The translations under genes were made by a program, and so were the position numbers. The notes under the pieces were generated by a model. The model had not been told where the DNA came from, searched no databases, and was given only the letters and a program-made list of their open reading frames with translations. Shown here piece after piece: positions 8,340 through 44,196 of a DNA stretch of 64,000 nt. This DNA is from Escherichia phage ECO340P2. The stretch lies in sequence record OP172792, one strand, 5' to 3'. Each line of letters opens with the position of its first letter. Positions within the stretch are counted from its first letter, which is position 1.

Positions 8340-8469
8340 TAAATACTAATATTTAAATTCTTTTTAAAATAGCCAGTGTTCACACCACTAACTATGAGTT
8401 ATCGGTAAAGTGGTTACCGCCACTTGCCGAAGATTTACTCTGCTAAAGTAAGCTATATTAAAAAGAACT

Positions 8470-8555
8470 TGGCGGTAGATGTAGGACTCGAACCTACACG
8501 CCGTTTCCGACTACAGTTTAGCAAACTGTCGTGGCTACCATTTCACCAATCTACC
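8470..8555 (-). tRNA. tRNA-Ser (anticodon GCT), type II
   Basis: acceptor GGTAGAT/ATCTACC, G73, anticodon arm ACAGT-TTGCTAA-ACTGT, long variable arm, T-loop TTCGAGT. Confidence 0.85.
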
Positions 8556-8560
8556 TAATC

Positions 8561-8651
8561 TGGCGGAAGGAGGGAGAGTCGAACTCCCAAGGCTCTTTCA
8601 AGCTCGGCGGTTTTCAAGACCGTTTTCGTCGCCACGTCGATTTGCCCTTCC
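8561..8651 (-). tRNA. tRNA-Ser (anticodon TGA), type II
   Basis: acceptor GGAAGGG/TCCTTCC, G73, anticodon loop CTTGAAA, long variable arm, T-arm GGGAG/TTCGACT/CTCCC. Confidence 0.8.
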
Positions 8652-8660
8652 ATACTTATA

Positions 8661-8689
8661 ATCTAACATAAAATAATGTTAGTTGTCAA
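8661..8689 (-). promoter_or_regulatory. sigma70-like promoter (TTGACA-17-TTAGAT) upstream of the right tRNA sub-cluster
   Basis: reverse complement CTATTGACAA motif about 30 nt upstream of tRNA-Ser 5' end. Confidence 0.3.
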
Positions 8690-8884
8690 TAGTTTTTTAA
8701 AACATTTTACCATGAATGGTGACTCCACCAACCCCGTTCTCCACGAACGGTGCTCTTCGAGCATTTATGTCTTCTAATATAACCGTGGCCTTTGTTTATA
8801 ATGTCTGACATACTTGCCTCATTCTCTGCCACCATGATCAGTAGTGGGTTCAAATCACTTGAGCTAATTCATGTTAAAATGTTC

Positions 8885-8959
8885 TGGTGTCTTTACAAGG
8901 AATCGAACCTTGACTAAGAGTTTAGAAGACTCCTGTGCTATCCATTACACCATAAAGAC
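8885..8959 (-). tRNA. tRNA-Arg (anticodon TCT)
   Basis: acceptor GTCTTTA/TAAAGAC, anticodon arm GGAGT-CTTCTAA-ACTCT, T-arm CAAGG/TTCGATT/CCTTG, CCA. Confidence 0.85.
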
Positions 8960-8961
8960 GT

Positions 8962-9036
8962 TGGTGGCCCTGGCTGGTTTCGATCCAGCTACCTATCGGT
9001 TATGAGCCGACAGCTCTCCCATTGAGCTACAGGGCC
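8962..9036 (-). tRNA. tRNA-Met (anticodon CAT; second copy, possibly a different CAT isoacceptor)
   Basis: acceptor GGCCCTG/CAGGGCC, anticodon loop CTCATAA, T-arm GCTGG/ATCGAAA/CCAGC, CCA. Confidence 0.8.
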
Positions 9037-25566: not shown

Positions 25567-27807
25567 TTGATTCGTTTTGTAACTAAATCTAACGGTAAGA
25601 CAGAGGAGTTTAATCCAGAAAAACTTCGCAAGTGGTCTGAATTTGCAGCAGGTAAACTAAACTGGTCTGAAATTGAATTAGAAGCTGTGAAGCGGTGTTA
25701 TGACGGTGTGTCTACACGTGATCTGCATAAAGCAATGATTGCAGCGTGTATTGACAAGAAAACACAAGCTTACAGTGATATGGCAGGAAGACTTCTTCTG
25801 GGTATGATTTACAAACAGGCTCATGGGGGATACCACAGTATCCCTTCACTGAATACCTTTTATCATGATATGGTAGAACGTGGACATTGGGCTAAAATGG
25901 ATTATACTGATGAAGAGATCAAAGAAATCGGTAAGATTGTAAAGCATAATAAAAATCTAACTTATGGTTATTCTGTTTTACGTCAGATGGTAGATAAATA
26001 TCTTATTCGAGATGCAGTAAACGATGTTGTGCATGAGTCTCCACAGTTTCTTTTCATTGGTATCGCAATGAAGGTTATGGAGATCCAACCAAAAGAACGC
26101 CGTATAGAAGATATTAAAAAACTTTATACTTATGTTAGCGATCTTAAGATTAATCTGCCATCGCCGTATCTGACAACTCTACGAACTCCAATCAAAGGAA
26201 GTGCGTCTTGTTGTTTATTCCGTGCAGACGATACGGCAGAGTCTTTAGCCATTGCTAACTACTTAGCTCATGAGTATACGTTGAATAACGCAGGTATTGG
26301 TGTTAATCTTCAAACCCGTGCCACAGGTCAAGGTGTTAAGAATAATCGTATTATTCATGGTGGTCTTCTTCCGTATCTGAAATGGATGGAAGATAGTGTT
26401 GGAGCTTCGAAGCAAGCAAGCCGTGGAGGTAGTGCTACAGTTACCTTTACCATACTTGAACCAGATTTCGACGATCTGATTCGACTGAAGAATCCAACAA
26501 CACCTATAGATAAACGAGTAGACAAACTGGATTATTCTATTGTTGTTAACCGTTCATTCTTGCGTCGAGCAGCAAAAAACGAAGATTGGATGTTAGTTAG
26601 TTGTGATGATGCTCCTGAACTTTATGAAGCTTTGTATAAAAGTGAAGAAGAGTTTGATGCAGTTTATGACAAAGTAAGCCGTCGTCGCATTAAGAAAAAA
26701 TTTGTTAAGGCTCGTGATCTTCTGACAGAGATTATTGTTCAACGTGCAGAAACAGGACGTATTTACATGTTCTTTGCTGACAACGTTAACAACCATACAC
26801 CTTTCCTGGATACGGTGTATCAATCAAACCTGTGTCAAGAGATTTTCTTACCGACTAAAGCTTTCCACAATATGCCGGATCTCTTTACTGGTGAGAATAC
26901 TGAAGATCAAGAATTGGCTTTATGTTTCTTATCTTCTATTGTTGCTGGTCGTGTATTACCTGAAGAATATGAAGATGTTGCATACTACACTGTATTGACA
27001 ATTGACAACGTTATTGAAACAATGGATTATCCATTTAAACATAACGAAATAACTGCTAAAGCACGTAGATCTATTGGTGTAGGCATTACAAACTTAGCGC
27101 ATTACTTGGCAAGTAATTTTGTAAATTATTCAGATGCTTATGCTAAAAAATTAATGCATGAACTTGCAGAACGTCATTACTTTTGGTTGGCAAAAGCCTC
27201 TCTGCGTCTGGCTAAGGAAAAAGGTAATGCGGAGTGGATCGATAAGACCAAATGGCCTCAAGGTTGGCTACCAATTGACACTTATGTTAAAACAGTAGAT
27301 AGTATCGGTAATTTTGATCTTAAAATGGACTGGGAAGGCTTACGTGCTGAAATCATTGAACAAGGTGGTATCCGTAACAGTGTCTTGGCTGCTATTGCAC
27401 CTAATGAGTCCAGCAGTTTGGTAAGCAATACTACTAACTCTCTGTATCCTGTTCGTGATACCATTATGTATAAACAAAGTCAGAAAGGCAGTGTATTATT
27501 TATTGTTCCAGACTATGAAAAACTGAAAATGTTCTACCAATCTGCCTGGGATACTCCGGCTAAAGATCTTGCAGAAATGTATGGTATCTTTACCAAGTTT
27601 ACGGACCAAGGAATTTCTTGTGATTCTTGGTTAGATTATTCTAAATTGGTAGGGGGACGTTTATCAGTTAAAGAAGAGATGAAATTTATTTTGAACTTTG
27701 CTAGACTGGGTGGTAAGTCATTGTATTACCTTAATAGTAGAACAAAATCAGCAGATTCTTTAGCACAAGAAGATTCTGATGGTGGTTGTGAAGCTTGCAA
27801 GATGTGA
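25567..27807 (+). CDS. nrdA: ribonucleotide reductase large subunit (class Ia NrdA), TTG start
   Basis: 746 aa; N-terminal ATP-cone-like region, active-site NLCQEI, C-terminal tail ending CEACKM; RBS GGGAGGAG. Confidence 0.85.
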   Translation: MIRFVTKSNGKTEEFNPEKLRKWSEFAAGKLNWSEIELEAVKRCYDGVSTRDLHKAMIAACIDKKTQAYSDMAGRLLLGMIYKQAHGGYHSIPSLNTFYHDMVERGHWAKMDYTDEEIKEIGKIVKHNKNLTYGYSVLRQMVDKYLIRDAVNDVVHESPQFLFIGIAMKVMEIQPKERRIEDIKKLYTYVSDLKINLPSPYLTTLRTPIKGSASCCLFRADDTAESLAIANYLAHEYTLNNAGIGVNLQTRATGQGVKNNRIIHGGLLPYLKWMEDSVGASKQASRGGSATVTFTILEPDFDDLIRLKNPTTPIDKRVDKLDYSIVVNRSFLRRAAKNEDWMLVSCDDAPELYEALYKSEEEFDAVYDKVSRRRIKKKFVKARDLLTEIIVQRAETGRIYMFFADNVNNHTPFLDTVYQSNLCQEIFLPTKAFHNMPDLFTGENTEDQELALCFLSSIVAGRVLPEEYEDVAYYTVLTIDNVIETMDYPFKHNEITAKARRSIGVGITNLAHYLASNFVNYSDAYAKKLMHELAERHYFWLAKASLRLAKEKGNAEWIDKTKWPQGWLPIDTYVKTVDSIGNFDLKMDWEGLRAEIIEQGGIRNSVLAAIAPNESSSLVSNTTNSLYPVRDTIMYKQSQKGSVLFIVPDYEKLKMFYQSAWDTPAKDLAEMYGIFTKFTDQGISCDSWLDYSKLVGGRLSVKEEMKFILNFARLGGKSLYYLNSRTKSADSLAQEDSDGGCEACKM

Positions 27808-27814
27808 TAAAACT

Positions 27815-27838
27815 AGGGGCTTCGGCCCCTTTTTATTG
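27815..27838 (+). terminator. rho-independent terminator
   Basis: GGGGC-TTCG-GCCCC hairpin followed by TTTTTATT. Confidence 0.6.
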
Positions 27839-27851
27839 AGGAGAATTTTAA

Positions 27852-28937
27852 ATGGCAGCAATTAATTTACACAATGAAGTTTACAAAACAGGAAAATATC
27901 CAGTATTTTTGGGGGAGCAATTAGGGATCTTTGATTCTGTTAACGTAACTTATCCAGAAATGCACAAACTCTACAAACTTCAAAAAGCACAAGATTGGGA
28001 TGAAAACGAAGTTAATCTGGATCAGACACGTAAAGATTTCGTAGCTTGTTCTAAAAACAACTATGATGTTATGATTAAAAACTTATCGTTCCAATGGGAA
28101 AATGATTCTCTTGCAAAATCAATCATCACTTTGTTCTCTCCATTCTTGAGTAACAATGAAGCCTGTGCTATGATGATGAAGCAGAGTGAAATGGAAGTTC
28201 TCCATGCGTTAACGTATTCTGAAATAATCCGTCAATGTACTCCAGATCCAATTGAAGTCATCAATCAGATTATGATTAATGATAAAATTTTCAATCGTAT
28301 GGGTATCATTGCTGATATCATGGGTCAGTTGGAAGAAGCTGGTCATAAGTATGCTCTAGGATTGATTGAAGCTAACGATGAACTTCGCTTGCTGATTCTT
28401 AAAGGGATGGTAGCCCTGATTGGATTAGAAGGTATTCAGTTTATATCTTCCTTCTCTGCTACTTTTGCTATGGCAGAACAACAACTGTTTGTTGGGGCTT
28501 GTAAACTGATCCAGAAAATTATGCTAGATGAAATCTTGCATGTTAAGATGGACTATGCTGTAATTGATGCATTGATGCATGACCCAATTTGGCGTAAAAT
28601 TTACGAAGATAATATTGAAGAGTTGACTTTGATCCTCGACACTGTTGTTGAACAAGAGGAACAGTGGTGTGACTACCTGTTTAGTGAAGGTCGTTTTATT
28701 GTAGGTCTTAACGCCGAATTGTCTAAACAGTGGGTTTATTTCAATGCTGCTCCTATTTATCGTCGATTGAAAATGAAAGCCAAGTTTAAAGCACCTAAAC
28801 ATAGTCCTTTAGCTTGGATGGAAAAATGGTTGAATCCTGATTTGATTCAGTCAGCAGCCCAAGAGATTCAGTTAACTAATTACAAATTGAATTCAGCTAA
28901 CAAAGATCTCTCTGATGATGAGGAGCTTGACTTCTAA
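27852..28937 (+). CDS. nrdB: ribonucleotide reductase small subunit (class Ia NrdB)
   Basis: 361 aa; ferritin-like helices with conserved E/H positions; acidic C-terminal tail DDEELDF; next to nrdA. Confidence 0.85.
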   Translation: MAAINLHNEVYKTGKYPVFLGEQLGIFDSVNVTYPEMHKLYKLQKAQDWDENEVNLDQTRKDFVACSKNNYDVMIKNLSFQWENDSLAKSIITLFSPFLSNNEACAMMMKQSEMEVLHALTYSEIIRQCTPDPIEVINQIMINDKIFNRMGIIADIMGQLEEAGHKYALGLIEANDELRLLILKGMVALIGLEGIQFISSFSATFAMAEQQLFVGACKLIQKIMLDEILHVKMDYAVIDALMHDPIWRKIYEDNIEELTLILDTVVEQEEQWCDYLFSEGRFIVGLNAELSKQWVYFNAAPIYRRLKMKAKFKAPKHSPLAWMEKWLNPDLIQSAAQEIQLTNYKLNSANKDLSDDEELDF

Positions 28938-29146
28938 TGATTTTGAGATGTGTTGGTATAATCGACACATTCAAAGACGTTTTTGACAAAGGGGCTTCTT
29001 ATGAAGCCTCCGAAATGAAGAATGGTTTTTGTGATGTATTCGGTAAACGCCTGAAGAAAAACGGCGATCCTTGGCTAGGAGTTATGTCTTGTGGTCATAT
29101 TATTGTAAATGGTGTTGCCAAGTTTGAAATAATTAAGGAGGAATAA
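28937..29146 (+). CDS. hypothetical protein
   Basis: 69 aa ORF overlapping nrdB stop. Confidence 0.5.
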   Translation: MILRCVGIIDTFKDVFDKGASYEASEMKNGFCDVFGKRLKKNGDPWLGVMSCGHIIVNGVAKFEIIKEE

Positions 29147-29298
29147 TGGCTGAAAAACTTATTTTTTGTCCTGTGTGTGGTGGGACTGGACAGATGGAAG
29201 TGGAAATTATGGTAACATTTCCTTGCCTGAATTGTCATGGTGAAGGACGAGTAGTAGTCTTTGAAAAAGAAGGGTTGGAGGTAGAAGATGGAGAGTGA
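29146..29298 (+). CDS. hypothetical zinc-finger mini-protein (DnaJ-type CxxCxGxG repeats)
   Basis: 50 aa; CPVCGGTG and CLNCHGEG; AAGGAGG RBS; start overlaps previous stop (TAATG). Confidence 0.4.
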   Translation: MAEKLIFCPVCGGTGQMEVEIMVTFPCLNCHGEGRVVVFEKEGLEVEDGE

Positions 29299-29452
29299 AA
29301 AAGAGTATGTCCGAATTCCACGAGAATTAACAGATCACATTGCAGAAGCAATAGCTTTCGAAGCTAGATGTTGTGGAGGCATTGCTTACGATATTTATGA
29401 AGCAATTATTAAAGCTGCTCAAGAAGAGGAGGAGATGAAAAATGGGTATTGA
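29288..29452 (+). CDS. hypothetical small protein
   Basis: 54 aa; GGAGG upstream; bridges two annotated genes with overlapping stops. Confidence 0.35.
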   Translation: MESEKEYVRIPRELTDHIAEAIAFEARCCGGIAYDIYEAIIKAAQEEEEMKNGY

Positions 29453-29768
29453 TATCGAATGGCGTATGTTACAGGGTGCACCTTTTAATAAGTGGGAAGA
29501 GGTTGTAGGAGAAGATCCTAGAATTGAAGAAGAATTTGATGGAGATTTTAACTGGTTCTTACAAGAAGGTCTTGATTTAAGTCGTATCTCTCCTTTCTAC
29601 GATGCTGATGAGTCTTATTGCATATATGGTATTTATTTAGAAGGCGGAGAAGGAAGCGTAGCTGTAGATCTTGAGCAAGTAAATGAGAATGCAAAAGAAG
29701 CCTATGCAGAGCTACTTGAAAAATATAACATTAAAACGGAAACTATTATTTCTCAACACGTCTGGTAA
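29442..29768 (+). CDS. hypothetical acidic protein
   Basis: 108 aa ORF. Confidence 0.55.
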   Translation: MGIDIEWRMLQGAPFNKWEEVVGEDPRIEEEFDGDFNWFLQEGLDLSRISPFYDADESYCIYGIYLEGGEGSVAVDLEQVNENAKEAYAELLEKYNIKTETIISQHVW

Positions 29769-29777
29769 GGAGAGAAA

Positions 29778-30344
29778 ATGAAAGTAGAAAAAACAAAAAT
29801 TGAAGGTGCGGTAATTATCAAACCAGACGTTTATAAAGATGATCGTGGTTTCTTTTTAGAAACATACAATGAACAAAAATACGAAGATATCATTGGTAAA
29901 CAAACTTTCGTTCAAGATAATATGTCTAAATCAAACTTCGGTGTTTTGCGAGGAATGCACTTTCAAACAAATAACCCGCAAGGTAAGCTTGTTCGTTGTG
30001 TAAGTGGAGAAGTATTGGATTTCGCTGTAGATTTACGTAAAGATAGTCCAACTTACGGTGCTTGGGACGGTGTTGTTCTTCGTGCACGACACCATACGCA
30101 GTTTTGGCTTCCCCCTGGTTTGGCACATGGTTTTATAGTTTTGAGTATGGACGCTATCTTTGAATACAAATGCACAACTCCATACGACCCTTCTAGCGAA
30201 CAAAGTTTACGTTGGGATGATCCTGACATAGGGATCGATTGGGGCTTCGATATGATTTTTGACGAAGGTTTTAAACCTATCTTATCAACAAAAGATGCAA
30301 TGGCTAAATCTTTTCAACAGTTGCGTAGTGAGGGTGTATGCTAA
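29778..30344 (+). CDS. rmlC: dTDP-4-dehydrorhamnose 3,5-epimerase (RmlC-like cupin)
   Basis: 188 aa; FxETY...GVLRGMHFQ block and size match RmlC/RfbC. Confidence 0.75.
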   Translation: MKVEKTKIEGAVIIKPDVYKDDRGFFLETYNEQKYEDIIGKQTFVQDNMSKSNFGVLRGMHFQTNNPQGKLVRCVSGEVLDFAVDLRKDSPTYGAWDGVVLRARHHTQFWLPPGLAHGFIVLSMDAIFEYKCTTPYDPSSEQSLRWDDPDIGIDWGFDMIFDEGFKPILSTKDAMAKSFQQLRSEGVC

Positions 30345-31180
30345 CATATCTGGTATTGGGTGGTAATGGACAACTGGGACAAGCTTTACGTAAAGTGGTT
30401 CCTTCAAATGTATCTTTAATTTATCCTAAAGAACGTGTAGATATTACAAATTTTGAAGCTGTGCGAAACGCTATTGTTGAAGATTATGTAGACGGTGTTA
30501 TTAACTGCGCTGCTTATACGGCTGTAGATAAAGCAGAACATGATTTTGCTACTGCTTTGGCTGTTAATGCGTATGGACCTGCAAATATTGCGGCAGTGTG
30601 CAGCAAACTTAAAATTGATTTTGTGCATATTTCTACAGACTATATTTTTAATTATTCTCACCCTATTTTTGAAGATACTACACCTAACCCAATAAACAAT
30701 TATGGGTATACGAAAGAACTTGGTGAAAAAATGGTGCGAGGAGTTAACCCAAATGCATATATTATTCGAACAGCCTCGGTATATAGCGAATTTGGAAATA
30801 ACTTTCTAAAAACGATGTTGTCTCGCTATAACGATGGACAACGTGATTTTATTATTGTTGCTGATCAGTTCTCTTGTCCAACATATGCTCCAGATTTAGC
30901 AGAAGCTATTTTTGAAGTATTAAAAACAGGTTGGTCAAGGTCTGTTAAGACTTACCATTTTGCAGGAAGCCATTTTATTTCTTGGGCGGAGTTTGCGGAA
31001 AAGATCTTGACACAGATGCCAGAACCTGTTAAGATATCGGCGGTATCAGCTTCAACCTATAATGCTCCAGCAGCACGTCCGGTGAAGTCACAACTAGTAA
31101 CCAGTCACTACCTTACAAAATCAGATTTAAATAAAGGTATTGAACAGTCTTTAGCAGTATTACTTAATAAGGAGAGGTAA
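30338..31180 (+). CDS. rmlD: dTDP-4-dehydrorhamnose reductase (RmlD-like short-chain reductase)
   Basis: 280 aa; N-terminal Rossmann LVLGGNGQLGQAL; YxxxK-type context; adjacent to rmlC. Confidence 0.7.
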   Translation: MLTYLVLGGNGQLGQALRKVVPSNVSLIYPKERVDITNFEAVRNAIVEDYVDGVINCAAYTAVDKAEHDFATALAVNAYGPANIAAVCSKLKIDFVHISTDYIFNYSHPIFEDTTPNPINNYGYTKELGEKMVRGVNPNAYIIRTASVYSEFGNNFLKTMLSRYNDGQRDFIIVADQFSCPTYAPDLAEAIFEVLKTGWSRSVKTYHFAGSHFISWAEFAEKILTQMPEPVKISAVSASTYNAPAARPVKSQLVTSHYLTKSDLNKGIEQSLAVLLNKER

Positions 31181-31440
31181 TGGAATTTGTAATTTTTGGT
31201 AAACCTAACTGTCAATTTTGCGAAATGTCAAAACAACTATTAACCATGCGCAATAAACAGTTTGAATATTTAAGTCTTGATCAAGACTATGATTTAGAAT
31301 CAATGACTAAAACAGTTGTTGATCTTACCGGAGTTCCTCCACGCACATTTCCACAAATTCTGTCTGAAGTGAACGGGGAGGTAACATACGTAGGCGGTTT
31401 TACCGAACTGCGTGATCTCATGGCTCAAATTGCGGAGTAA
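31180..31440 (+). CDS. glutaredoxin/NrdH-like redoxin
   Basis: 86 aa; N-terminal FGKPNCQFC (CxxC active site) in thioredoxin-fold context. Confidence 0.7.
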   Translation: MEFVIFGKPNCQFCEMSKQLLTMRNKQFEYLSLDQDYDLESMTKTVVDLTGVPPRTFPQILSEVNGEVTYVGGFTELRDLMAQIAE

Positions 31441-40185: not shown

Positions 40186-41127
40186 ATGGTGTTAATTGGT
40201 AGCCGTGCATTACAAATTCATGCTATGGATATGGGAAAAGACTTGTATCGCCCTTGTGTAGATTTAGATTACCTGTGTACAGAACAAGAGTGGGAAGAAT
40301 TATCAAAAATGTTCTCTCAAGAGGAGTTTGTTGAACTTGTAGAACGTAAAGGGAACAAGGGCCATGTCAAAATGATAGCTGGTGCACATTTGGAATACGA
40401 TATTGCTTCTCAAGGAGATAGCACAGAAGCTTTGATTAGTTATTGTGAAGAGTCTGATGATATTCGTCGAACTTACGCTGGACATGTTGTTGCTCCTTTA
40501 GATGTGCTCTACCTTCTTAAAATGAGTCATCGTTTTAAAAAGGATAGTCCTCACTTCTTTAAAACTATGAAAGATATTCATTTCATGCGATCACTGGGCG
40601 CAAAGATCCCAGAAAATCTTAAGAGTATTTATGAGTTGCGTGAGAAAGAAACATACACTTACTCTCATCCAAACTTAAACGTAAAAAGTAAAGACTTCTT
40701 TAAAGGTGATGAGGTTCCGTATGTTTATGATCATGATTCTATCCACGAAGCCATTGCGGTAATGGATGCTCCAGCATATAAATCTTATATGAAAGATGGA
40801 AGTGAAGTTATGACCAGCAAAGAAAAGTTTTTTGCTCAACCAAAACATGTGCGCCTGTTAGGTGTTTATGAAGAAGCGTGTGTTTTGGCTTTGGAACGTT
40901 CACAAATTCCTTTCGGTGAAGAGATCGGAGGTCCAACACCTAAGCAAAGTTTTATGATGGCTTTATCTAAAGTTTGCACATCCATTACTAGTGGTTGGTT
41001 TAGGGAATATGCCTGGGAGAACTTTTACGTTGTTACTAAACTATATGAAAACATGGGTGAAAACGACTATGTTGAACGTTTTAAAGCTAATCGCCATGTA
41101 GTAAAGCCTTTTGAAGGAGGTTATTAA
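40186..41127 (+). CDS. hypothetical protein
   Basis: 313 aa ORF, RBS AGAGGAG. Confidence 0.55.
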   Translation: MVLIGSRALQIHAMDMGKDLYRPCVDLDYLCTEQEWEELSKMFSQEEFVELVERKGNKGHVKMIAGAHLEYDIASQGDSTEALISYCEESDDIRRTYAGHVVAPLDVLYLLKMSHRFKKDSPHFFKTMKDIHFMRSLGAKIPENLKSIYELREKETYTYSHPNLNVKSKDFFKGDEVPYVYDHDSIHEAIAVMDAPAYKSYMKDGSEVMTSKEKFFAQPKHVRLLGVYEEACVLALERSQIPFGEEIGGPTPKQSFMMALSKVCTSITSGWFREYAWENFYVVTKLYENMGENDYVERFKANRHVVKPFEGGY

Positions 41128-41128
41128 T

Positions 41129-41524
41129 ATGTGTGGATATCTTTCAGAAAGTTATTTCAAAGTGACCCATGAGGATTTAGAAAAAGCACGATTGAAATTG
41201 ACAGCTATTATTGAATACTCTAATACTGTTGATCACAGATTAAAGACTACTAAAGTATCTGTTCCTTGTTGGTTAGGTTTACGGCATAAAACAATGTCTC
41301 AACATGATCATGTTGTTCGAGAGATGCATGGTTGGTGTTGGTTTCACGATGTGGCTCTGCATTTTGGTTATATTACAGAAGAAGAACATAGATTCTGTGA
41401 GCTAACATATCGTATTCCAACCCTTCACGATTTAGATTTGTGGAGGAAAGCAAGTGAGATCTTTCTGACAGAAAGTGATTGGCGTAAAGTTATGGCTTGT
41501 CTTGAATGGAGGGGCAATGAGTAA
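41129..41524 (+). CDS. hypothetical protein
   Basis: ATG after GGAGG; ORF-track start 41111 is inside previous gene. Confidence 0.5.
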   Translation: MCGYLSESYFKVTHEDLEKARLKLTAIIEYSNTVDHRLKTTKVSVPCWLGLRHKTMSQHDHVVREMHGWCWFHDVALHFGYITEEEHRFCELTYRIPTLHDLDLWRKASEIFLTESDWRKVMACLEWRGNE

Positions 41525-42200
41525 AACAGTTTTGTCTATGTTTGACGGATCTGGTATCATGGTGTTACGTTATGCCGAAGCAGGTCACAAGTGTTTTTGT
41601 GTAAACGCTGATGAAGGGGACCACGGTAAATACGAGGTCAGGATGGAGCACCCAAACATAACCTATGTGAATGCTTGGATAGATTCTACATTCAACCCTG
41701 AAGATCACGGAATACCTAAACCCGATATTATTTTTGGATTTCCACCTTGCACTATGTTAGCAGGTAGTGGTAGCAAACACGAACGTAGCACAGAGGAATT
41801 AGATGAAGCTTTAGCTAATATTCGTGTAGTGGAAGCTTTGGGTAACAAATACAATGTTCCTTGGATGATTGAGAACCCAGTAGGTAAACTTTCAACCTTA
41901 TGGCGTAAACCTGATTTTTACTTTGATCCTTATGAGTATGGTGGGTATTTGTTTGAAGAGGAAGGAAGCTTTCATCCTAAAATGCCTACCCGCGATGGAT
42001 ATACAAAGAAAACTTGTATCTGGTACGGAAATGGTTTTGTTCAACCAGTGAAGAAACCAGTAGATCATATAGGCTGTTTCTGGGGTTGGAAAAGCTTGGG
42101 TGGAGCTAGTGCAAAAACAAAACAACTTAGATCGCTAACAGCACGTGGTTTTGCTCGTGCAGTGTTTTTGTCTAACAATCTTCTAGATAAGGAGAAATGA
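41517..42200 (+). CDS. compact DNA (cytosine-5) methyltransferase-like protein
   Basis: motif I-like MFDGSG, motif IV-like FGFPPC, motif VI-like WMIENPVGKL; only ~227 aa, no obvious target-recognition domain. Confidence 0.45.
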   Translation: MSKTVLSMFDGSGIMVLRYAEAGHKCFCVNADEGDHGKYEVRMEHPNITYVNAWIDSTFNPEDHGIPKPDIIFGFPPCTMLAGSGSKHERSTEELDEALANIRVVEALGNKYNVPWMIENPVGKLSTLWRKPDFYFDPYEYGGYLFEEEGSFHPKMPTRDGYTKKTCIWYGNGFVQPVKKPVDHIGCFWGWKSLGGASAKTKQLRSLTARGFARAVFLSNNLLDKEK

Positions 42201-42853
42201 TGTCAAATTCAAAACAATTAGTTGCTTATCAAGTAGATCGTAATGATGGGGAAGGAAGTGTTGTTATTTTCAGTACACACGGTCTTGAGGCTCGTCGAAA
42301 AGGTGCATATCGTTTAGAATGTGAGTTTGAAGACTGCACAAGCCACCGTGTCAAACAATTCGATCAATATGCTGATAAAGGCTTCGTCCCTATCAAAGCC
42401 TTACTGGAAGATGGTTGGTGGGTATATTCTGCTTTTGATTACTCAAAACTGGAGGAGTCAGCTTCGTGCGCCTCCGAGATCGAATATGATGATTACTATG
42501 ACACTCTCTACCTTCCAGAATGGCTTGTCTTTTCTCCTGATGAGAGAAGTGTCTGGAAAACTTGGGAAGAAATGGAGAGACATGCATATAGCATCAATGA
42601 AGCCTTAGATCGTAAAGCTTGGTTTATTGAGGCAGTAAAGGCGGCATACCCTCAATTCTCATTTTGTGATTTCACTGGTGGCCCAGGATACATTACACAT
42701 ACAGCCTCTTTTGAGTTCCCTGGCTCACGTTATAAAGGTAATGTTTATTGGGATTGGGATGAAAATAAACAACCTTCGGCTCAAGACTTCCGTTGCTATG
42801 TTTGCCAAGGTGATCAAGAAGCCCTTGACAAATACCTTCAAAGTCTGATATAG
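42197..42853 (+). CDS. hypothetical protein
   Basis: 218 aa ORF overlapping previous stop. Confidence 0.5.
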   Translation: MMSNSKQLVAYQVDRNDGEGSVVIFSTHGLEARRKGAYRLECEFEDCTSHRVKQFDQYADKGFVPIKALLEDGWWVYSAFDYSKLEESASCASEIEYDDYYDTLYLPEWLVFSPDERSVWKTWEEMERHAYSINEALDRKAWFIEAVKAAYPQFSFCDFTGGPGYITHTASFEFPGSRYKGNVYWDWDENKQPSAQDFRCYVCQGDQEALDKYLQSLI

Positions 42854-42870
42854 TGTCAACATCTGAACAA

Positions 42871-42897
42871 AGCCCCCTGTTTCAGGGGGTTTTTCTT
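42871..42897 (+). terminator. rho-independent terminator
   Basis: CCCCCTG-TTTC-AGGGGG hairpin followed by TTTTTCTTT. Confidence 0.55.
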
Positions 42898-42910
42898 TAT
42901 AGGAGGAAAT

Positions 42911-43396
42911 ATGTTTCAAGTAAATGTCAATGTGCATAATAGTTACTCTGATTGTGAAACGTGTGGCTATAGTTCATCTAATGTTGTTCGTATCAGTGGT
43001 GATTTGGGAGAAGCTTCTTTTGGAGAAGAAGCAAGTTGCTTTAGCGGTATGGATGCAGAATGGAATGATATTGCACATTGGTTGGTGAGCAAACTAAAAG
43101 AAAAAGAGAAACCATTTCCTACTCTGCTTGATCGTTCTCTTGTAGAAGACGCAGGTAAAGCCTATGCAGATTACGCTTATGCAGATGGGAAGTACTTGGA
43201 AGATGACAAGGCTAACCATTTGCTTTATGTTTACTATGAAGCTGAAGCTGCCTATGATAATTATTATAGTATGTCCAATATCTTACGGCTATTTGCAGAG
43301 TTTGATATCTATTTTGAAGTAGAGTTTTCAGAAGATGATACTTACGAGTATGATTCTTATGATCCATTTGAGGAGGAAGAATGCCAAGACGAGTGA
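42911..43396 (+). CDS. hypothetical highly acidic protein
   Basis: 161 aa; Asp/Glu/Tyr-rich C-terminal half; 3' end overlaps the Sir2 gene start. Confidence 0.5.
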   Translation: MFQVNVNVHNSYSDCETCGYSSSNVVRISGDLGEASFGEEASCFSGMDAEWNDIAHWLVSKLKEKEKPFPTLLDRSLVEDAGKAYADYAYADGKYLEDDKANHLLYVYYEAEAAYDNYYSMSNILRLFAEFDIYFEVEFSEDDTYEYDSYDPFEEEECQDE

Positions 43397-44196
43397 TTTT
43401 TGTAAGTGGTGCAGGTTTAAGTGCAGACAGTGGGATTCGAACATTCAGAACAGACACAGATAGCGGTCGTGCTTTATGGGAAGAATACGATTTAGAAGAG
43501 GTCTGCAATATTGGAGCTTTCCAAGCAGGTTATCGTGTGAGAACATCTCCAGATCTTCCGGTGGTTGGAGGTGTAGACGAGAACGGTATAGATTTATATG
43601 CCAAAACACACGAATTTTATAACAAAAGACGTGTTGAGCTTAAAAACGTACAACCTAATGCTGCGCATCTTCAAATAGCCAAATGGTTTAAGGAATATCC
43701 TAACCAGGTAGTAAACTTGACAACAAATGTCGATGATCTACTAGAGCGAGCAGGGGTAGACAGGGACTCGGTTGTTCACGTGCACGGTTATCTTCCTGAA
43801 GTAGTCTGCCGTATGCACCCTGGAGATTACAAAACACTGGTGGATATTGGTTACAATAGTATAAACATAGATGATTATAACTGGGTGAAGCCTAATGTAG
43901 TCTTCTTTGGGGAAGCTGCTCCACTTTACACGGATATGTATCATATTTTTGATACATTGACGTCTCAAGATATGGTGATTGTAGTAGGCTGCTCTAATCA
44001 AGTTATCAATTTTAACTGGGAGCTTTTTCCTGCTCTTAACATCGGGACAAAAATGGTCGTAGTTAATCCAGGAGTTAATTACGAAGAAACACTTCTCTAT
44101 GAAGATCGTGGAGTTTTTGTTTACCGAGAAAAAGCTGTAACAGCCTTCAGTAATGAAGGTTTCATTAAAATGGTCGAAGACCACTTAAACAAATAA
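43381..44196 (+). CDS. Sir2-family (sirtuin-like) NAD-dependent protein
   Basis: N-terminal VIFVSGAGLSADSGIRTFR matches the sirtuin NAD-binding signature GAGxSxxSGIPxFR. Confidence 0.7.
   Translation: MPRRVIFVSGAGLSADSGIRTFRTDTDSGRALWEEYDLEEVCNIGAFQAGYRVRTSPDLPVVGGVDENGIDLYAKTHEFYNKRRVELKNVQPNAAHLQIAKWFKEYPNQVVNLTTNVDDLLERAGVDRDSVVHVHGYLPEVVCRMHPGDYKTLVDIGYNSINIDDYNWVKPNVVFFGEAAPLYTDMYHIFDTLTSQDMVIVVGCSNQVINFNWELFPALNIGTKMVVVNPGVNYEETLLYEDRGVFVYREKAVTAFSNEGFIKMVEDHLNK

Follow-up and report, generated by a model that had tools for sequence, protein, structure and literature searches.

The stretch of DNA analysed in this work (hereafter the window) comprises 64,000 nucleotides of Escherichia phage ECO340P2 (sequence record OP172792), a Phapecoctavirus whose nearest record is Escherichia phage ECO340P1, with E. 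coli and Shigella as hosts. Open reading frame calls fill positions 29,778 to 31,440 of the window with three intact plus-strand genes, namely rmlC (29778..30344; 188 aa) for a dTDP-4-dehydrorhamnose 3,5-epimerase, rmlD (30338..31180; 280 aa) for a dTDP-4-dehydrorhamnose reductase, and grx (31180..31440; 86 aa) for a glutaredoxin; rmlC and rmlD overlap by 7 nt, and rmlD and grx by 1 nt. Directly upstream of rmlC, the plus-strand sequence GGAGAGAAA (29769..29777) contains the ribosome-binding site and, by comparison with four-gene relatives, the point at which rmlB and rmlA are absent, and the rml insertion site is bordered on the left by a conserved 108-aa ORF without assigned function (phrog_15453; 29442..29768, plus strand). 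Further upstream on the same strand lies the neighbouring ancestral block of class Ia ribonucleotide reductase genes (25567..28937), nrdA (25567–27807) and nrdB (27852–28937), which were assigned from their ORFs, the annotation of relatives and the synteny in rml-less phages, and four small ORFs separate nrdB from rmlC. A sigma-70 promoter scan of 23–34 kb returned 41 candidates against 33 ± 6 in shuffled sequence, which is not above expectation, and operon boundaries were not found; a hairpin between nrdA and nrdB was the sole clear signal of the regulatory scan of this region.

RmlC scores 225.3 bits against the equivalog profile TIGR01221 (cut-off 155.75; residues 2–181 of 188 covered) and 224.6 bits against PF00908 (E 8e-67), and it matches solved RmlC structures at E 7e-56. 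Nine residues (R23, E28, Q46, R58, H61, K70, H117, Y130 and D173) are invariant in four phage lineages and align with K-12 RfbC. Eight of these also align with the solved RmlC, including H61 and D173, which we take to be the His/Asp dyad, Y130, taken as the Tyr acid, and K70, taken as the Lys, of the Salmonella and Streptococcus structures, as well as R23, E28, Q46 and R58, presumably the dTDP-binding Arg/Glu/Gln residues. RmlC is thereby predicted from its sequence to doubly epimerise dTDP-4-keto-6-deoxy-D-glucose. RmlD matches PF04321 (RmlD_sub_bind) over its full length (246.9 bits, E 3e-73) and passes the equivalog profile TIGR01214 by a narrow margin (239.1 bits, cut-off 224.05), and falls short of the enterobacterial-type model NF007440 (117.9 bits against 308). 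Its best structure matches are the RmlD structures 3sc6 and 1vl0 (E 3e-44), and both the NAD(P)H motif G8xxG11xxG14 and the SDR Thr/Tyr/Lys triad (T100, Y122xxxK126) are invariant across the phage lineages and aligned with 3sc6, 1vl0 and K-12 RfbD. A preliminary description of this DNA, made without database searches, had named the pair RmlC and RmlD, allowing that profile searches might move them to other cupin or SDR families; both names held, each enzyme exceeding its equivalog cut-off with its catalytic residues conserved, and in RmlD the cofactor motif as well. The two enzyme families and their catalytic residues are thus shared with the bacterial pathway RmlA-RmlB-RmlC-RmlD (E. coli rfbBDAC; Salmonella RmlC 1dzr and RmlD 1kbz). 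However, the phage encodes the last two steps only, its RmlC and RmlD are 50% and 31% identical to the K-12 enzymes, RmlD is nearer to the Firmicute-type structures 3sc6 and 1vl0 than to the K-12 enzyme, and the genes reside in a virulent phage, whereas the bacterial genes lie in the O-antigen cluster.

The complete cassette rmlB-rmlA-rmlC-rmlD occupies the equivalent slot in ESCO5, phAPEC8, tuntematon, SKA64, phi92 and phiWec179, and it has been described for the Stephanstirmvirinae phAPEC8, ESCO5 and phi92 (Olsen et al., 2020, PMC7552041); this four-gene context in close relatives had escaped the preliminary description. ECO340P2 shares with phAPEC8 and ESCO5 the slot between the 108-aa ORF, which is present in all Stephanstirmvirinae loci examined, and grx, and its RmlC and RmlD are 98–100% identical in protein to their counterparts, so that it differs from these type phages in nothing other than the missing rmlB and rmlA, which leaves the pathway incomplete. 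The lack of RmlA and RmlB that had been noted earlier was confirmed in the window by tblastn, where RmlA of ESCO5 found no match and the sole match of RmlB was the paralogous SDR fold of RmlD (26% identity, E 2.5e-5), and it extends to the ECO340P1 genome pieces L006, L029 and L030 (tblastn, with RmlA queries from ESCO5 and phi92) and to the complete genome of the two-gene relative anhysbys. About a third of Phapecoctavirus, including this phage, lack rmlB-rmlA, and the loss in ESCO37 has already been noted (PMC10269720); the alignment of ESCO37 to the query begins at position 1, as in the two-gene relatives anhysbys and ZCKP1.

The segment missing at the junction measures 1876 bp in ESCO5. 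Compared with the four-gene relatives, the left half of the junction corresponds to the ribosome-binding site that precedes rmlB, its right half to the last bases of rmlA, the junction lies between two GGAGA ribosome-binding sites, and it is identical in 10 of the 10 two-gene phapecoctaviruses examined. The two-gene state most likely arose by one 1.9-kb deletion between the two GGAGA sites. Across the genus, rmlBA diversity (pS 0.05) is similar to that of the flanks; the module would therefore be old in the genus, and deletion is favoured. The reverse polarity, in which a Wecvirus-type rmlBA module was inserted, is less favoured: the rmlBA of ESCO5 is indeed 94–97% identical to that of phiWec179 and has a GC3 of 0.39–0.41 against 0.21–0.29 in its neighbours, but the pS between the two phages amounts to 0.39–0.46, against the 0.05 within the genus that equals the flanks. 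Since the junction is symmetrical and the GC3 of ESCO5 rmlBA atypical, the deletion polarity is unproven.

The glutaredoxin scores 38.1 bits against PF00462 (cut-off 22.9) and its translation carries the CxxC active site C11-Q-F-C14, and among NCBIfam equivalogs it passes none (the highest score is 33 bits, where 90 are required). As in phage T4 NrdC and the E. coli Grx1-type reductants of class Ia ribonucleotide reductase, a small CxxC protein of the glutaredoxin fold is here encoded beside nrdAB, but it passes no specific glutaredoxin equivalog, and in Stephanstirmvirinae the rml insertion parts it from nrdB. In the Vequintavirinae SSBI34 and A73, which are without rml, the order is nrdA, nrdB, small ORFs and grx, and in SSBI34 a homologue of the 108-aa ORF stands immediately before grx, downstream of nrdAB. 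Judged by this gene order, the glutaredoxin is part of the ancestral nrdAB block, and the rml cassette is to be read as an insertion into that block. Two points of the preliminary description therefore fall away: the glutaredoxin had been grouped with the rml pair, whereas the same grx follows the same small ORF where rml is absent, and the placement had been taken as a hint of a nucleotide or DNA role, for which an insertion into a conserved nrdAB-grx block is no evidence.

All 16 loci compared carry rmlC, rmlD and grx in intact form. Within the two-gene phages pS reaches 0.10, and pN/pS is about 0.03 for rmlC (0.03–0.035) and 0.12–0.13 for rmlD, values that could in part be due to allele exchange with four-gene phages. 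Over about 130 genomes, the losses strike rmlAB and never rmlCD: in DIJ07P2 rmlAB has been independently broken by a fusion with rmlCD intact, and the Klebsiella phage KP2025, about 40% diverged, has no rmlAB in its whole genome and keeps all catalytic residues in an RmlC and RmlD that are about 60% identical. Two further records give a match in two pieces, for rmlD in P3322 and for rmlB in KKP 3954, as possible frameshifts. Overall, loss or breakage of rmlAB has taken place on at least two occasions and perhaps on three, and rmlCD is the constant core of the cassette, under purifying selection. An IMG/VR scan with RmlC returned two loci, one of them in an unrelated context, and the comparison of loci draws on annotated phage records.

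The products of rffG and rffH make dTDP-4-keto-6-deoxyglucose, the intermediate that a two-gene phage would need. Among 5426 complete E. coli genomes, rffG-rffH is present in 5309 (98%), whereas the counts for rfbC-like and rfbD-like genes are 2348 and 2386 (about 44%), these blastn counts of host rmlC and rmlD being lower bounds. The near-universal rffGH and the presence of rmlC/rmlD in only about 44% of hosts thus give a simple explanation for keeping only rmlCD, and the dependence on the host intermediate, raised in the preliminary description as something that may occur, is with 5309 genomes against some 2350–2390 its most sensible reading. We propose, with a probability of about 0.6, that RmlC and RmlD make dTDP-L-rhamnose from the host precursor for phage glycosyltransferases, and that rmlCD is the core of an ancestral cassette. 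First, the ancestor of Stephanstirmvirinae would have acquired the cassette at a site between nrdB and its glutaredoxin gene, and a 1.9-kb deletion removing rmlB and rmlA would have left rmlC with a working ribosome-binding site. Upon infection, dTDP-4-keto-6-deoxy-D-glucose could come from the host enzymes RffH/RffG, which serve enterobacterial common antigen (ECA) synthesis, or from RfbA/RfbB, RmlC could epimerise it at C3 and C5, and RmlD could perform the NAD(P)H reduction to dTDP-L-rhamnose, so that the sugar donor would be guaranteed also in those E. coli hosts, roughly half, that are without rmlC/rmlD.

The glycosyltransferases in the rest of the genome, which the preliminary description had suggested searching for, comprise four soluble enzymes encoded about 70 kb from the rml pair, outside the window, with a primase/helicase, a Dam-type methyltransferase and a DNA polymerase as neighbours; in the ECO340P1 record this cluster spans 40315–43459. 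None of the four has a membrane segment, in that no 19-residue hydrophobic stretch exceeds 1.65 on the Kyte-Doolittle scale, and in about 130 records of Stephanstirmvirinae the cluster and rmlCD are found together, which within one clade could be simple shared ancestry. These four glycosyltransferases are the likely consumers of dTDP-L-rhamnose and would probably act on a cytoplasmic acceptor, for which virion proteins are the leading candidate. Tentatively, and as a proposal that we hold rather doubtful as a whole, RmlC and RmlD, with or without RmlB and RmlA, and the four glycosyltransferases may build a rhamnose glycan on the virion proteins of Stephanstirmvirinae, the two-gene variants taking the host ECA precursor. 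In cluster-F mycobacteriophages (Che8), glycosylation of capsid and tail tube has been shown (Freeman 2023, as cited in PMC11256854 and PMC12619734). The Che8 system and this phage each have several soluble phage-encoded glycosyltransferases, and one enzyme of this phage shows remote similarity to the cluster-F set: the 227-aa protein matches about 300 cluster-F glycosyltransferases with 26–28% identity across some 130 aa (E about 1e-7). In contrast to the present phage, sugar-nucleotide synthesis genes are not reported for the cluster-F phages, their glycosyltransferase genes lie at the genome end and not beside replication genes, and their virion proteins are reported to be glycosylated, whereas for Stephanstirmvirinae no protein bearing a glycan is known. 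Ser/Thr-rich C-terminal tails were not seen on the capsid, decoration, tube and sheath proteins, which is uninformative.

Action on the host envelope is an unlikely alternative use of the pair, either through rhamnose for an altered LPS or O-antigen, giving superinfection exclusion or less trapping of progeny, or through a drain on ECA and O-antigen precursors. RmlC and RmlD would divert dTDP-4-keto-6-deoxyglucose from ECA, for which it is a precursor, and this diversion speaks for such an action. Moreover, these phages bind the LPS core and surface glycans (PMC8594841), and rhamnose can enter the K-12 LPS core (PMC12548472). However, a virulent phage kills its cell within one cycle, the four glycosyltransferases are without membrane segments, and in the whole anhysbys genome no flippase, polymerase, Wzx/Wzy-like or GtrA/GtrB/Gtr(type) partner is annotated; surface modification of the Gtr type is disfavoured because the phage enzymes are soluble. 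A precursor drain would make the four glycosyltransferases superfluous and would leave unexplained the four-gene phages, which make the precursor themselves.

Quite improbable is the published hypothesis, also entertained in the preliminary description, that dTDP-L-rhamnose is the donor for phage DNA glycosylation, as in the glucosylation of hydroxymethylcytosine in T-even phages. It draws on the position of rml among nucleotide-metabolism genes, to which Olsen et al. (2020, PMC7552041) drew attention, on the replication-type neighbours of the glycosyltransferase cluster (primase/helicase, Dam-type methyltransferase, DNA polymerase), and on the weak similarity of one glycosyltransferase to TET-associated (PF20691, 19.5 bits) and T-even (phrog_842, E 9e-6) DNA glycosyltransferases. 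In T-even and TET-associated systems, phage sugar transfer is likewise encoded near DNA-metabolism genes. However, the location is accounted for by the insertion into the ancestral nrdAB-grx block, and the PF20691 (TAGT) score lies below the Pfam cut-off of 27.5 and covers about 37 residues around a DxD motif, so that the likeness is local. Further, phi92-like phages carrying the full cassette and the glycosyltransferases are "exceptionally susceptible" to restriction-modification (PMC8594841; also PMC10844046), and this high sensitivity of relatives argues against glycosylated DNA. The T-even and TET-associated systems rely on a hydroxymethylating enzyme, whereas none is annotated in anhysbys: the annotations of this whole genome, many of whose ORFs are hypothetical, include ThyX and neither a hydroxymethylase nor TET/JBP. 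DNA glycosylation is disfavoured because the relatives are restriction-sensitive and hydroxymethylase or TET is not annotated in anhysbys. The donor in those systems is a UDP-sugar and here would be a dTDP-sugar; we know of no dTDP-sugar serving as donor of a DNA glycosyltransferase, which counts against it as well.

That rmlC and rmlD are a non-functional leftover, drifting to decay in a pathway that died with the loss of rmlB-rmlA, is very unlikely. In its favour, the genome encodes only part of the pathway, cassette damage occurs sporadically elsewhere (the DIJ07P2 fusion, and two records in which rmlD or rmlB matches in two pieces), and growth on K-12 shows no obvious need for the pathway. 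However, both genes are intact in all 16 loci with pN/pS of 0.035 and 0.12 despite pS of up to 0.10, the KP2025 lineage retains them with their catalytic residues in the absence of rmlAB, losses are confined to rmlAB and spare rmlCD, and the missing intermediate is provided by the host in 98% of E. coli genomes. Least probable of all, a reductase of opposite C4 stereochemistry giving another 6-deoxyhexose such as dTDP-6-deoxy-L-talose would suit an RmlD only 15 bits above its equivalog cut-off and 31% identical to E. coli RfbD, but hardly one for which all six structures matched with E ≤ 1e-20 bear the name dTDP-4-dehydrorhamnose reductase or dTDP-glucose oxidoreductase (RmlD), whose RmlD_sub_bind domain is full length (247 bits), and which is always accompanied by a canonical RmlC.

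In conclusion, the pathway, its odd location and the variant without rmlA/rmlB are already in print, and the genes are named in near-identical GenBank records; this work adds the pattern over about 130 genomes, in which the last two steps are always kept and the first two are dispensable, a retention that fits which steps E. coli hosts can and cannot contribute. What has been filed as an auxiliary metabolic gene thereby becomes a testable prediction of host dependence on rffGH and rfbBA, and the uncharacterised cluster of four glycosyltransferases is where the real function should be sought. If the proposed rhamnose glycan on virion proteins is true, phages of Gram-negative bacteria would thereby have their first system of virion glycosylation. 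The phages concerned are common therapeutic candidates of broad host range, and glycosylated virions would matter for recognition by the immune system and for pharmacokinetics, a case already argued for mycobacteriophages.

Downstream of nrdA (25567-27807) and nrdB (27852-28937), and separated from the latter by four small ORFs, the plus strand carries rmlC (29778-30344), rmlD (30338-31180, overlapping rmlC by 7 nt) and the 86-aa glutaredoxin gene grx (31180-31440, overlapping rmlD by 1 nt), exactly where the preliminary description had placed them. RmlC matches PF00908 (Pfam, E 8e-67) and lies above the NCBIfam equivalog cut-off of TIGR01221 (225.3 vs 155.75 bits), RmlD matches PF04321 (Pfam, E 3e-73) and exceeds that of TIGR01214 (239.1 vs 224.05 bits), and both match solved structures (E 7e-56 and 3e-44, respectively). 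The catalytic and substrate-binding residues of RmlC (R23, E28, Q46, R58, H61, K70, H117, Y130 and D173) and the RmlD motifs G8xxG11xxG14, T100 and Y122xxxK126 are kept, and all are invariant in an alignment of four diverged phage lineages. Both genes are ordinary RmlC and RmlD family members, and they have not been recently captured from the host, because they are 50% (RmlC) and 31% (RmlD) identical to the E. coli K-12 enzymes and their GC content is that of the phage genome. The glutaredoxin assignment comes from Pfam (38.1 bits vs a cut-off of 22.9), and no specific NCBIfam glutaredoxin model was passed.

The rml region is 100% identical to that of Escherichia phage ECO340P1 (OP172791.1), a Phapecoctavirus (subfamily Stephanstirmvirinae) whose isolation host was Shigella flexneri. 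Window 1-25000 aligns with OP172791.1 83947-109095 at 99.2% identity, with 0.8% mismatches and lengths that differ by about 149 nt; the window thus comes from this phage or from a nearly identical sibling. The records MG0656xx, OP562383.1 and MH252123.1 share 98-99% identity with E. coli phapecoctaviruses and are deposited as Campylobacter, Acinetobacter and Klebsiella phages; either the hosts named there look doubtful or these phages infect an unusually broad range of hosts.

In the phapecoctaviruses ESCO5, phAPEC8, tuntematon and SKA64, whose flanking genes are 98-99% identical to the window, rmlB-rmlA-rmlC-rmlD lie between the same 108-aa ORF (29442-29768 in the window) and the same glutaredoxin, and all four genes also occur in the sister genera, in phi92 (Justusliebigvirus) and phiWec179 (proposed 'Wecvirus'). 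By this comparison, the rmlC-rmlD pair is half of a four-gene cassette. The window has no rmlB or rmlA at the cassette slot, and neither was found elsewhere in the window, as the preliminary description had noted, nor in the other pieces of the ECO340P1 record or the complete genome of the two-gene relative anhysbys. In the 9-nt spacer GGAGAGAAA (29769-29777), the ribosome-binding site preceding rmlB in ESCO5 is fused to the very end of rmlA, where it overlaps the start of rmlC, and the junction is equivalent to 1876 bp taken out of the ESCO5 arrangement between two GGAGA repeats. An identical junction occurs in all ten two-gene phapecoctaviruses examined. RmlC and RmlD at 95% identity or above are present in 64 phage records and RmlB in 43 only; therefore about a third of the genus is two-gene, a share estimated from identity bands of phage-record matches.

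We propose, at odds of about three to one, that the two-gene state arose by deletion, which is the simpler reading because rmlBA is as old as the sampled genus and the four-gene state is found in three genera. Judged from the junction, the two-gene form could equally be the pre-insertion state, with rmlBA inserted later: the junction is symmetrical and so compatible with insertion as well, GC3 of ESCO5 rmlBA is 0.39-0.41 vs 0.21-0.29 in its neighbours, and ESCO5 rmlBA is 94-97% identical to that of phiWec179, while rmlCD is only about 65% identical. However, rmlBA is as diverse at synonymous sites among the four-gene phapecoctaviruses (0.05) as the flanks are (0.02-0.08), and pS between ESCO5 and phiWec179 rmlBA is 0.39-0.46; therefore the age of the module matches that of the sampled genus. 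Under either polarity, the constant core is formed by rmlCD, and the part that varies is rmlBA. Between phiWec179 (piece L022, 4125-7400) and ESCO5 (piece L001), the mosaic boundary is sharp: rmlB-rmlA share about 89% nucleotide identity, a value that falls right where rmlA meets rmlC to about 65%, and in the upstream 108-aa ORF to about 57%. Modules are thus swapped at gene boundaries.

Loss or breakage of rmlAB takes three forms, namely the shared clean junction, a fusion in DIJ07P2 and absence in KP2025. In the Phapecoctavirus DIJ07P2 (piece L017, 1879-2944), an independent internal deletion fused RmlB residues 1-305 out of frame to RmlA residues 240-292, keeping the last 53 rmlA codons, with rmlC and rmlD intact. 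In the genome of Klebsiella phage KP2025 rmlAB was not found, and its RmlC and RmlD, 62% and 57% identical to the window's, keep every catalytic residue. By contrast, rmlC, rmlD and grx are intact in 16/16 phapecoctavirus loci, and pN/pS inside the two-gene group is 0.035 for rmlC and 0.12 for rmlD, constraint no weaker than in the four-gene phages, although part of this diversity may stem from recombination with them. Therefore, we reject the reading of the pair as a decaying remnant. Two records hold genes matched in two pieces and annotated as two CDSs, rmlD of PV191315.1 (vB_EcoM-P3322) and rmlB of OR067838.1 (KKP 3954), possibly frameshifts or sequencing errors.

E. coli K-12 has rfbBDAC plus the enterobacterial-common-antigen genes rffG-rffH, whose products likewise make dTDP-4-keto-6-deoxy-D-glucose. 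Among 5426 complete E. coli genomes, rffG-rffH occur in 5309 (98%), and an rfbC-like gene in at least 2348 and an rfbD-like gene in at least 2386 (about 44%), both lower bounds at blastn sensitivity. Therefore, RmlA and RmlB duplicate what nearly every host supplies and RmlC and RmlD are absent from about half of the potential hosts, which explains why rmlAB, not rmlCD, is lost. The earlier suggestion that RmlC and RmlD may use an intermediate made by the host fits the near-universal rffG-rffH.

The Vequintavirinae phages SSBI34 and A73 are without rml genes; SSBI34 has the order thyX, nrdA, nrdB, small ORFs, a homologue of the 108-aa ORF and glutaredoxin, and A73 likewise nrdA, nrdB, small ORF(s) and glutaredoxin. 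Therefore, the glutaredoxin belongs to the ribonucleotide-reductase block, and the rml cassette has been inserted after the 108-aa ORF and before grx, so that its placement, which had been taken to hint at a nucleotide or DNA-modification role, is no evidence for one. Between nrdA and nrdB, a perfect GC-rich hairpin AGGGGCTTCGGCCCCT (27815-27830) followed by a T-run resembles a terminator on either strand; two extra ORFs occupy this site in ESCO5 and an HNH endonuclease in phi92, so that the nrd operon has a variable insertion point here. Two CxxC pairs occur in a 50-aa ORF (29146-29298) that all relatives keep downstream of nrdB and ahead of the rml genes; the DnaJ zinc-finger domain, DUF5351 and Anti-TRAP match it below threshold. 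By annotation of relatives, ten tRNA genes (Met x2, Ile, Pro, Gln, Gly, Thr, Asn, Ser and Arg) cluster at 7114-9036 on the minus strand. The GC-skew sign flips at about 10000 and 44000, coinciding with gene-orientation switches between the structural, tRNA and early-gene modules.

Four adjacent glycosyltransferase (GT) genes outside the window are annotated in the whole genome of anhysbys beside primase/helicase, a Dam-type methyltransferase and DNA polymerase; the same four ORFs lie at 40315-43459 of the ECO340P1 record, about 40 kb upstream of the window start and 70 kb from rmlC. Two are 41%-identical, GT-B-like tandem paralogues with sub-threshold Pfam GT1/GT4 matches, the third (227 aa) has a DxD motif, and the fourth (187 aa) matches PHROG families only. 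KP2025 has a reduced cluster, and the cluster accompanies rmlCD in virtually all of the roughly 130 Stephanstirmvirinae records, a co-occurrence within one clade that may be shared ancestry.

We infer that the sugar would be transferred to an acceptor in the cytoplasm, for which virion proteins are the leading candidate. The only other phage homologues of the 227-aa GT, remote ones, are about 300 GTs of cluster-F mycobacteriophages, in which glycans have been shown on capsid and tail-tube subunits (Freeman 2023, as cited in PMC11256854 and PMC12619734). The 227-aa GT also shows a weak, sub-threshold similarity, over about 37 residues, to TET-associated and T-even DNA glycosyltransferases. DNA glycosylation, proposed by Olsen 2020 (PMC7552041), is weakened as restriction acts exceptionally well on phi92-like phages that have the full system (PMC8594841; PMC10844046), the anhysbys whole-genome annotation includes no hydroxymethylating enzyme, and the argument from location falls with the insertion into the nrdAB-grx block. 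Gtr-type O-antigen modification is disfavoured, since all four GTs are devoid of membrane segments and the anhysbys annotation lists no flippase, polymerase or Gtr partner.

The feature is thus real, correctly named from the outset and already known in kind: near-identical records annotate rmlC and rmlD as such, a 2020 paper (PMC7552041) described the full dTDP-rhamnose pathway of phapecoctaviruses and its unusual position, and a 2023 paper (PMC10269720) noted ESCO37 without rmlA/rmlB; no report on an experimental function of these genes was found in the literature searched. New are the exact junction common to two-gene phages, the recurrent loss that is confined to the rmlAB side, the lasting retention of rmlCD without rmlAB in a lineage of Klebsiella phages, the gene frequencies in host genomes that account for this asymmetry, the attribution of the glutaredoxin to the nrdAB block, and the link of the rml genes to a soluble four-GT cluster, which might, although we think it unlikely, represent a system that glycosylates virions with rhamnose in phages of Gram-negative bacteria.
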